Below are positions 60,291 through 60,628 of a stretch of 64,000 nucleotides of DNA, one piece after another. The DNA is from an uncultured Thermoplasmata archaeon (GTDB lineage: Archaea > Thermoplasmatota > Thermoplasmata > RBG-16-68-12). The first letter of the stretch is position 1, and the number at the start of each line of letters is the position of its first letter. The notes under the pieces are model-generated. The model saw only the letters and a list, made by a program, of their open reading frames with translations, was not told where the DNA came from and did no database searches. A program made the position numbers and the translations under genes. The stretch lies in contig CAVYJM010000006.1 of assembly GCA_963768855.1 (NCBI GenBank), positions 864,001 through 928,000 of the forward strand, given 5' to 3'.

Positions 60291-60363
60291 GTTCCTCTTC
60301 CTCGTTCGGACGGCCGAAGTGGCGCGGTTCCTTAAAGGTTGGCCGAAAAACCACCCAAGGGTA

Positions 60364-60479
60364 TGCGGGGGATGGGATTTTCCGCCCGGCGCCTCTGGAC
60401 GCGGGGCCTTTGAACCCATGAACTCCTTCGAGACGGGATTTTAAGTCCCGCGCCGTTGTTCTAGCTTGGCTACCCCCGC
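60364..60479 (-). tRNA. tRNA-Leu(TAA) with a 31-nt non-canonical T-loop intron (59/60; 60378-60408)
   Basis: Acceptor GCGGGGG/CCCCCGC plus A73; anticodon arm CGGGA-CTTAAAA-TCCCG; long variable arm; T stem ATGGG/CCCAT enclosing 38 nt instead of 7; CATTATAC box ~25 nt upstream. Confidence 0.88.
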
Positions 60480-60628
60480 GCGCCGCGCATCGGACCTGCC
60501 GTATAATGCCTTTGGGGTGACCGTGTCCGGGGACGGGCGGGAGCAGCAACTACCGTACGGGGGTGACTCCTGTCCGGAAGGCGGAGGCTCCGCGAGCCTT
60601 TATTACGCGCCGGAGGGGTGCCCCGCTC

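Follow-up and report, generated by a model that had tools for sequence, protein, structure and literature searches.

A tRNA-Leu(UAA) gene interrupted in its T-loop

The window, that is, the whole analysed stretch of 64 000 nucleotides from the genome of an uncultured Thermoplasmata archaeon, carries on its minus strand a complete tRNA-Leu(UAA) gene with a 31-nt intron between tRNA positions 59 and 60. The parts of the gene, all on the minus strand and in window coordinates, were assigned as follows.

60364..60479, minus strand: tRNA-Leu(UAA) gene with its intron, complete, 116 nt, no CCA encoded (sequence; ARAGORN after excision)
60409..60479, minus strand: exon 1 (tRNA positions 1-59), 71 nt, with the acceptor 5' strand, D arm (A at 19), anticodon arm, long variable arm, T stem 5' strand and T-loop TTCAAA
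60443..60441, minus strand: anticodon TAA, in exon 1
60419..60415, minus strand: T stem 5' strand ATGGG, in exon 1
60378..60408, minus strand: intron at 59/60, 31 nt (excision, bulge-helix-bulge layout and alignment of relatives)
60364..60377, minus strand: exon 2 (positions 60-73), 14 nt, with T60, T stem 3' strand, acceptor 3' strand CCCCCGC and A73
60376..60372, minus strand: T stem 3' strand CCCAT, in exon 2
60364, minus strand: discriminator A73, in exon 2

Read on the minus strand, the acceptor stem is a perfect helix of 7 bp (GCGGGGG...CCCCCGC), the anticodon loop is CTTAAAA, and the two halves of the T stem are separated by 38 nt instead of 7. When 60408..60378 was removed in silico, ARAGORN called an 85-nt tRNA-Leu(taa) having a 7-bp acceptor stem, A73 and the T-loop TTCAAAT, and its cloverleaf included the long variable arm, the A73 discriminator and the leucine anticodon that characterize a class II tRNA-Leu. 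The unspliced gene was missed by ARAGORN, both with and without the -i option, and by Rfam RF00005 when a 351-nt slice was searched at the gathering threshold and at E<=10. A preliminary description of this DNA had proposed a tRNA-Leu(UAA) with a bulge-helix-bulge (BHB) intron at 59/60 of the T-loop, at these coordinates and with these sequences, which was borne out by the ARAGORN call on the spliced form. Its assignment of the DNA to a Thermoplasmata-type organism agreed with our pattern scans, which retrieved near-identical loci from assemblies of Thermoplasmata and Methanomassiliicoccales archaea.

The G18 G19 typical of a class II tRNA-Leu was lacking, because the D-loop (window 60441-60462, minus strand) reads G18 A19. 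G19 is near-universal in the D-loop and normally pairs with C56. The A at position 19, for which a caveat had been entered at the outset, proved to be real, being common to this genome (G000) and its two closest relatives (L004 and L007) only, with GG in the other orthologues. Since it is present also in these two relatives, we consider it to be a lineage substitution and not a sequencing error.

Anatomy of the exon-intron junction

The junction has the layout of a bulge-helix-bulge of 3-4-3 nt, in which the T stem, ATGGG/CCCAT, serves as the 5-bp outer helix. The other elements are listed below.

60411..60414, minus strand: central BHB helix, 5' strand TTCA (T54 T55 C56 A57) (layout and 37 orthologues)
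60380..60383, minus strand: central BHB helix, 3' strand GGAA, in the intron (layout and 37 orthologues)
60408..60410, minus strand: 5' bulge AA/G (A58, A59 and the first intron base), with the predicted cut after A59 (layout)
60377..60379, minus strand: 3' bulge AA/T (the last two intron bases and T60), with the predicted cut before T60 (layout)
60384..60407, minus strand: inner helix and loop, GCCC-C-GCGTC / CAGA / GGCGC-C-GGGC, 4+5 bp (RNAfold, -14.7 kcal/mol)

The position of the cut within each bulge follows from what is established for BHB motifs in general. Within the central helix, T54-A, T55-A and C56-G are standard pairs and an A57.G mismatch is found at the inner end, beside the 5' bulge; among relatives, the 3' strand of this helix reads GGAA, GGGA, GGAG, TGGA or TGAA. 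With the A.G stacked in the helix, both bulges have 3 nt; with the A.G open, a 4x1 internal loop results on the 5' side. A kink-turn reading of this A.G was also considered, and was rejected because it would require the mismatch on the opposite side of the bulge. The minimum free energy (MFE) fold of the precursor formed the T stem and the intron hairpin and was devoid of the 3-bp central helix, and it is usual for BHB motifs that the short central helix is missing from such folds.

Because of the runs of A at the junction, four cut registers yield an identical mature RNA. The 59/60 register could nevertheless be fixed by the BHB rule together with the varying last intron bases of the relatives. 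All 37 orthologues have A at 59 and T at 60, with AA, AC, AG, AT or GA as the last two bases of the intron, and this register alone gives one invariant T-loop. Six introns at 37/38 in the same genome (in the genes for Gln-CTG, Ser-GGA, Tyr, Met, Trp and Lys-CTT) have a geometry identical to that of the Leu(UAA) intron at 59/60, in that a 5-bp stem closes a 7-nt loop, four bases of this loop pair with the 3' end of the intron and the cut follows its sixth base. They differ in being located in the anticodon loop and in having a fully paired central helix in five of the six cases, that of Tyr having one mismatch. With a layout equal to theirs, the Leu(UAA) motif should be regarded as strict 3-4-3 save for one purine-purine opposition. 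The term 'relaxed BHB', as first applied to this intron, is accordingly apt for the single non-Watson-Crick A57.G opposition and not for the remainder of the motif, which is a strict 3-4-3 with both flanking helices present.

Conservation and covariation of the intron structure

Structure counts were taken from alignment A1, which contains the T arm and intron of 37 distinct orthologues. The T stem was paired in 100% of these and pairs 54, 55 and 56 were standard in 37/37, with pair 55 changed from U-A to U-G in 14 of the 37. The opposition at A57 was A.G, and thus unpaired, in 32/37 and A-U in 5/37. Of the ten pairs of the inner helix, nine showed compensatory changes. Altogether 88% of the cells were paired as observed, compared with 39-53% when the partners were slid, and not one of 500 shuffles matched the observed score on any of five measures. 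The exons were almost invariant, with the intron changing only in ways that preserved pairing. The Leu(UAA) locus was also found independently by a blind scan of the whole 2.87-Mb genome for BHB-like geometry, in which every candidate was spliced in silico and then submitted to ARAGORN; a loosened version of that scan was noisy, and only its hits matching missing anticodons were kept. The BHB structure at the Leu(UAA) locus is not a product of chance.

A sole gene for reading UUA, with its probable flanking signals

No second tRNA-Leu(UAA) was found in the genome by ARAGORN, by Infernal (whole genome) or by BLAST, and hence none of the intron-less copies that the preliminary description had named as evidence that would speak against it. 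In a set of 419 open frames that are long and of high GC3, TTA is the rarest leucine codon (0.4% of Leu codons); its 121 occurrences are spread such that 108 of these frames, or about a quarter, contain at least one. The gene is flanked by the following elements.

60501..60513, minus strand: promoter-like element AAAGGCATTATAC, about 22 nt upstream of position 1 (spacing conserved in nearly every orthologue from the genus)
60507..60502, minus strand: TATA-like ATTATA inside the AAAGGCATTATAC element (sequence)
60346..60350, minus strand: T5 run, 13 nt downstream of A73 (sequence; position not conserved among relatives)

The AAAGGCATTATAC box may be an archaeal BRE/TATA promoter, and the T5 run is likely to be an archaeal terminator. 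Just downstream of the tRNA, at window 60325-60345 on the minus strand, is a AACCTTTAAGG box, and similar boxes, AACCTTTAA or AACGTTTAA, follow the gene in many relatives. The AACCTTTAAGG box probably serves as promoter for the minus-strand gene that comes after, which is likely to start at the ATG at 60291 (MKTTGFGILVLGLL..., signal-peptide-like).

The intron was present in DNA contigs of two independent studies, with 0 differences in X1 and with 1 difference, located in the hairpin loop, in X6 record 9; the possibility that the insertion would be missing from reads, raised together with the original proposal, was thereby answered at the level of contigs. Among RNA datasets, no run was found to contain this DNA, and the Nanopore metatranscriptome of one study yielded no match to it. 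Another record, X6 record 8 (depth 142), seemed to skip exactly the intron. The loose end of that record has the anticodon loop TTCAGGG, so that it is neither a spliced nor an intron-less allele of the gene; it is the tRNA-Leu(CAG) of another, more abundant organism having the same T arm. The genome studied here is a metagenome-assembled genome (MAG), 93.6% complete and with 7.7% contamination, and a second copy of this tRNA gene or of the gene for the splicing endonuclease (EndA) could for that reason be unassembled.

Distribution of the intron within the order

Using BLAST against 60 relatives, we found the complete 116-nt precursor in 25/36 same-genus genomes, in 4/6 genomes of family f3 and in 2/2 of family f4, with the gene found in neither form in 11/36 same-genus genomes (53-94% complete; BLAST). 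The 59/60 intron was also found, together with further introns, in f2, f5 and f7, giving a total of six of the seven sampled families. The number of introns in tRNA-Leu(UAA) varies between these families: f6 has none, and a different T arm; f1, f3 and f4 have the 59/60 intron alone; f5, f7 and part of f2 have introns at both 37/38 and 59/60; and two f2 genomes have three, located in the D-loop, at 37/38 and at 59/60. These order-wide intron numbers are those of rows L092-L104, from the same-order genomes G037-G058. The one-contig same-order genome G059 gave only a spurious 22-nt match to the gene. A presence in six of seven families indicates that the 59/60 intron is old and vertically inherited, and argues against a recent insertion. 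Acquisition by transposition, the second of two readings first put forward for this intron, was consequently not borne out as a recent event. Having zero, one, two or three introns in one and the same gene among sister families, the order also provides a compact series on intron gain and loss.

Distribution among other archaea

Two pattern scans, covering one genome per GTDB species, yielded at least well over a hundred tRNA loci that end in CCCCCGCA and have an insert at 59/60. Among the matches listed, those that ARAGORN could name were mostly tRNA-Leu isoacceptors, and the hosts were Thermoplasmata MAGs together with members of the Asgard, DPANN and TACK lineages. No cultured Thermoplasmata were found among the matches listed from these scans, where that class was represented by MAGs only. 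The intron base facing A57 was G, giving a mismatch, in 67 loci and T, giving a pair, in 24 loci among the matches listed (L033-L215); again among the matches listed, Thermoplasmata loci mostly have G opposite A57, and those of Asgard, DPANN and TACK mostly have full pairing. One Thermoplasmatales MAG has G57 facing A at two loci (L164 and L178). A purine-purine opposition beside the 5' bulge is a recurrent feature of these introns. The regularity of G opposite A57 could be due either to common descent of the introns or to an enzyme that is indifferent to this pair.

Further non-canonical introns in the same genome

Two more tRNA genes of the genome contain 59/60 introns, and a tRNA-Pro gene contains an intron in its D-loop.

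C6:1074410-1074515 (outside the window), plus strand: tRNA(CAU), elongator Met or Ile2, with a 32-nt intron at 59/60 (C6:1074470-1074501); TTCA/GGGA with the same A57.G
C6:475178-475210 (outside the window), plus strand: T-arm with a 33-nt intron at 59/60; TTCG/CGAA, fully paired
C6:930237-930348 (about 2.3 kb past the window end), minus strand: tRNA-Pro(GGG) with a D-loop intron of about 41 nt; exons AGCTTGGT...ATCC by comparison with the tRNA-Pro(CGG) of the genome

Only the 5' part of the tRNA(CAU) gene was seen by Infernal (31 bits), and a near-identical copy at C16:1434-1540, on a contig of 4 kb, seems to reflect redundancy in the assembly. The intron of tRNA-Pro(GGG) has a perfect central helix (CTTG/CAAG) and an outer helix that is weak or offset. 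Whole-genome analysis using ARAGORN -i resulted in many false calls with kilobase-long 'introns', and these were left out.

The splicing enzymes

EndA is encoded by one gene, on contig 17 (L001:1468-2592, minus strand), in which PF01974 matches twice in one frame. The protein has 374 aa, and as PF02778 and PF01974 each match twice it is composed of two N-terminal-plus-catalytic repeats. It is colinear with the EndA of A. fulgidus (1r0v) over 51-359 and exceeds it in length chiefly through the structural repeat at the N-terminal end. The alignment of its C-terminal repeat to the alpha4 subunit of M. jannaschii (1a79) is nearly gap-free. The Tyr/His/Lys triad is aligned, with RAY, HHAK and VKKQ opposite RLY, EHS and VRKK of M. 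jannaschii and with matching residues in 5x89. To judge from its sequence, the enzyme is thus of the ordinary alpha'2 type, with two tandem repeats. The same single two-repeat EndA gene was found in 59/61 genomes of the order, including those of the intron-less family f6, and every genome of the series with zero to three introns in tRNA-Leu(UAA) has it. The ligase RtcB is also present in the genome (PF01139, 573 bits).

Broad specificity of EndA has been linked to inserted loops (PMC5829648), of which L1 and L2 are situated close to the N-terminal part of the catalytic unit, and L3 close to the C-terminus. In comparison with M. jannaschii 1a79 and A. fulgidus 1r0v, the EndA of this genome has no insertion either at the L1/L2 site or at the C-terminal L3 site, and in the alignment Lys161 of the ARMAN-2 enzyme falls in an insertion that this EndA lacks. 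Classifying the EndA, as had been recommended with the original proposal, therefore placed it in the alpha'2 type without specificity loops. The accompanying notion that the organism needs an EndA of broader specificity found no support, as the sole EndA is a plain alpha'2 enzyme lacking L1, L2 and L3 insertions, and the same single two-repeat gene recurs in those 59 genomes. The motif of the tRNA-Pro(GGG) intron is more relaxed than that of Leu(UAA), and yet the EndA of the genome has no specificity loop.

Relation to known introns

Position 59/60 is listed among the non-canonical intron sites (PMC4090602), and introns at 59/60 have been cleaved in vitro in the case of ARMAN-2 (PMC3239211). 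The latter are those of pre-tRNA-Pro(GGG), with a strict hBHBh' 3-4-3 motif, and also pre-tRNA-Cys(GCA), whose motif is a relaxed hBH, both in Candidatus Micrarchaeum acidiphilum ARMAN-2 (Fujishima et al. 2011, PMC3239211). They resemble the intron described here in their T-loop site, in having the T stem for an outer helix, in their short length and in splicing by proteins, which is here predicted. ARMAN-2 is however of a different phylum and has a three-unit epsilon2 EndA with an ASL loop (Lys161), in contrast to the two-repeat alpha'2 enzyme without that insertion, and the conserved A.G of the central helix is a feature of the Leu(UAA) intron. The Thermoproteales and other Crenarchaeota, as far as their introns are summarized in PMC4090602 (citing Marck and Grosjean 2003 and Sugahara et al. 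2008), are similar in having BHB motifs outside 37/38, including at 59/60, with several introns per gene and with varying numbers. The crenarchaeal EndA is an (alpha-beta)2 enzyme with the crenarchaeal loop L1, whereas the present lineage is without L1.

A tRNAscan-SE 2.0 census lists 25 non-canonical introns in 144 euryarchaeal genomes, of which 6 were in 3 Methanomassiliicoccales genomes and 1 in 5 Thermoplasmatales genomes (PMC8450103, Supplementary Table S7). The Methanomassiliicoccales of the census are of the same class and probably of the same order as the present genome, the table giving counts only, with no positions, tRNA identities or motifs. Non-canonical introns in Thermoplasmata with alpha'2-type enzymes are thus already on record in that census, and a full-text literature search found no paper discussing such introns of the Methanomassiliicoccales/Thermoplasmata group. 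A BHB intron at 59/60 is also an already known kind of intron and not a new kind of element.

Discussion

Considering all of these findings, we estimate at roughly 80% the probability that the locus is the single functional tRNA-Leu(UAA) gene of this genome, split by a 31-nt intron at 59/60 that would be spliced by proteins, is old and has been vertically inherited in most families, with the alpha'2 EndA and RtcB as the presumed processing enzymes. In the precursor, the T stem would then form the outer helix and T54-T55-C56(-A57) would pair with the 3' GGAA of the intron into a central helix of four positions, with the two 3-nt bulges holding the scissile bonds and the GC-rich hairpin of the intron serving as inner helix. 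That would be the geometry of a canonical 37/38 intron, shifted to the other 7-nt loop that is closed by a 5-bp stem. The alpha'2 EndA, as sole splicing endonuclease, should cut in both bulges, whereupon ligation of the exons by RtcB would bring back the T-loop TTCAAAT. Modification of the T-loop, formation of the elbow and addition of CCA would presumably occur only after the exons have been joined. What speaks against this model is the A57.G opposition beside the 5' bulge, as a strict motif has been described as a requirement of alpha'2 enzymes (PMC3239211, PMC5829648), together with the A19 in place of G19, the usual partner of C56.

The same A57.G could instead suggest that a BHB of this kind, at a non-canonical site, is processed only by an EndA of broadened specificity, and that the lineage should have an atypical EndA. 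Reviews tie alpha4 and alpha'2 enzymes to strict 3-4-3 motifs and confine Euryarchaeota having them to single strict introns at 37/38 (PMC3239211, PMC4090602, PMC5829648), and A57.G is the majority state in the 59/60 introns of Thermoplasmata (67 of 94 TTCA-type loci among the matches listed, and 32/37 orthologues); the weak outer helix of the tRNA-Pro(GGG) D-loop intron in the same genome points in that direction as well. We nevertheless find this unlikely, because the only EndA is a plain alpha'2 enzyme with neither an L1/L2 insertion nor a C-terminal L3-type insert, because 59/61 relatives have one such gene whatever the intron content of their tRNA-Leu, and because bulge lengths and both flanking helices are canonical. 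Somewhat more plausible, although still improbable in our view, is an origin of the Leu(UAA) intron by copying, through transposition or gene conversion, from the 59/60 intron of another tRNA gene, which would then have been an ancient event preceding the split of the families. Such copying has been proposed for Thermoproteales (PMC4090602), the three 59/60 introns of this genome share site and design, with a GC-rich hairpin followed by (C/G)G(A/G)AAA, and the 59/60 introns of Thermoplasmata Leu isoacceptors have in common the non-ideal GGAA/GGGA rather than the fully pairing TGAA (among the matches listed). The three introns of the genome, however, appear to have no clear sequence likeness beyond the demands of BHB and GC content, and the Leu(UAA) intron is orthologous and has diverged with its host gene across six families, so that any transfer cannot have been recent.

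That the locus would instead be a dead gene, i.e. a tRNA pseudogene disrupted by an insertion and never spliced, with UUA being read in some other way, we regard as very improbable. The failure of standard finders to see the gene, the rarity of TTA (0.4% of Leu codons) and the unusual A19 might be taken in its favor, but the exons are near-invariant, the variation of the intron keeps its pairing, no other Leu(UAA) gene was found, the promoter-like box has been kept upstream and TTA occurs in about a quarter of the long frames. The intron is very probably spliced. Least probable of all is that the 31 nt stem from mis-assembly, as might be suspected of a MAG with 7.7% contamination, for two independent studies have contigs with the same insert, as do dozens of other assemblies.

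For the functional, vertically inherited and spliced tRNA-Leu(UAA) that we favor, one consequence is practical, in that tRNA finders lacking a step for non-canonical introns make this genome and many Thermoplasmata MAGs seem unable to read UUA. The case is also a further indication that textbooks tie alpha'2 or alpha4 EndA too rigidly to one strict 37/38 intron. From the sequences compared here, it appears that the position of the intron as such is immaterial to the enzyme and that the conserved A.G in the central helix is tolerated. We consider it possible, although with odds somewhat below even, that a loop-less alpha'2 enzyme, as the sole splicing enzyme of the order, efficiently cuts precursors with a mismatched 59/60 motif, with a weak D-loop motif and with up to three introns. 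If that is true, the rule that a broad range requires L1, L2 or L3, with alpha'2 enzymes restricted to strict motifs, would need revision, and the order, with its zero to three introns in this gene, would then offer a natural system in which to study how introns are gained and lost.
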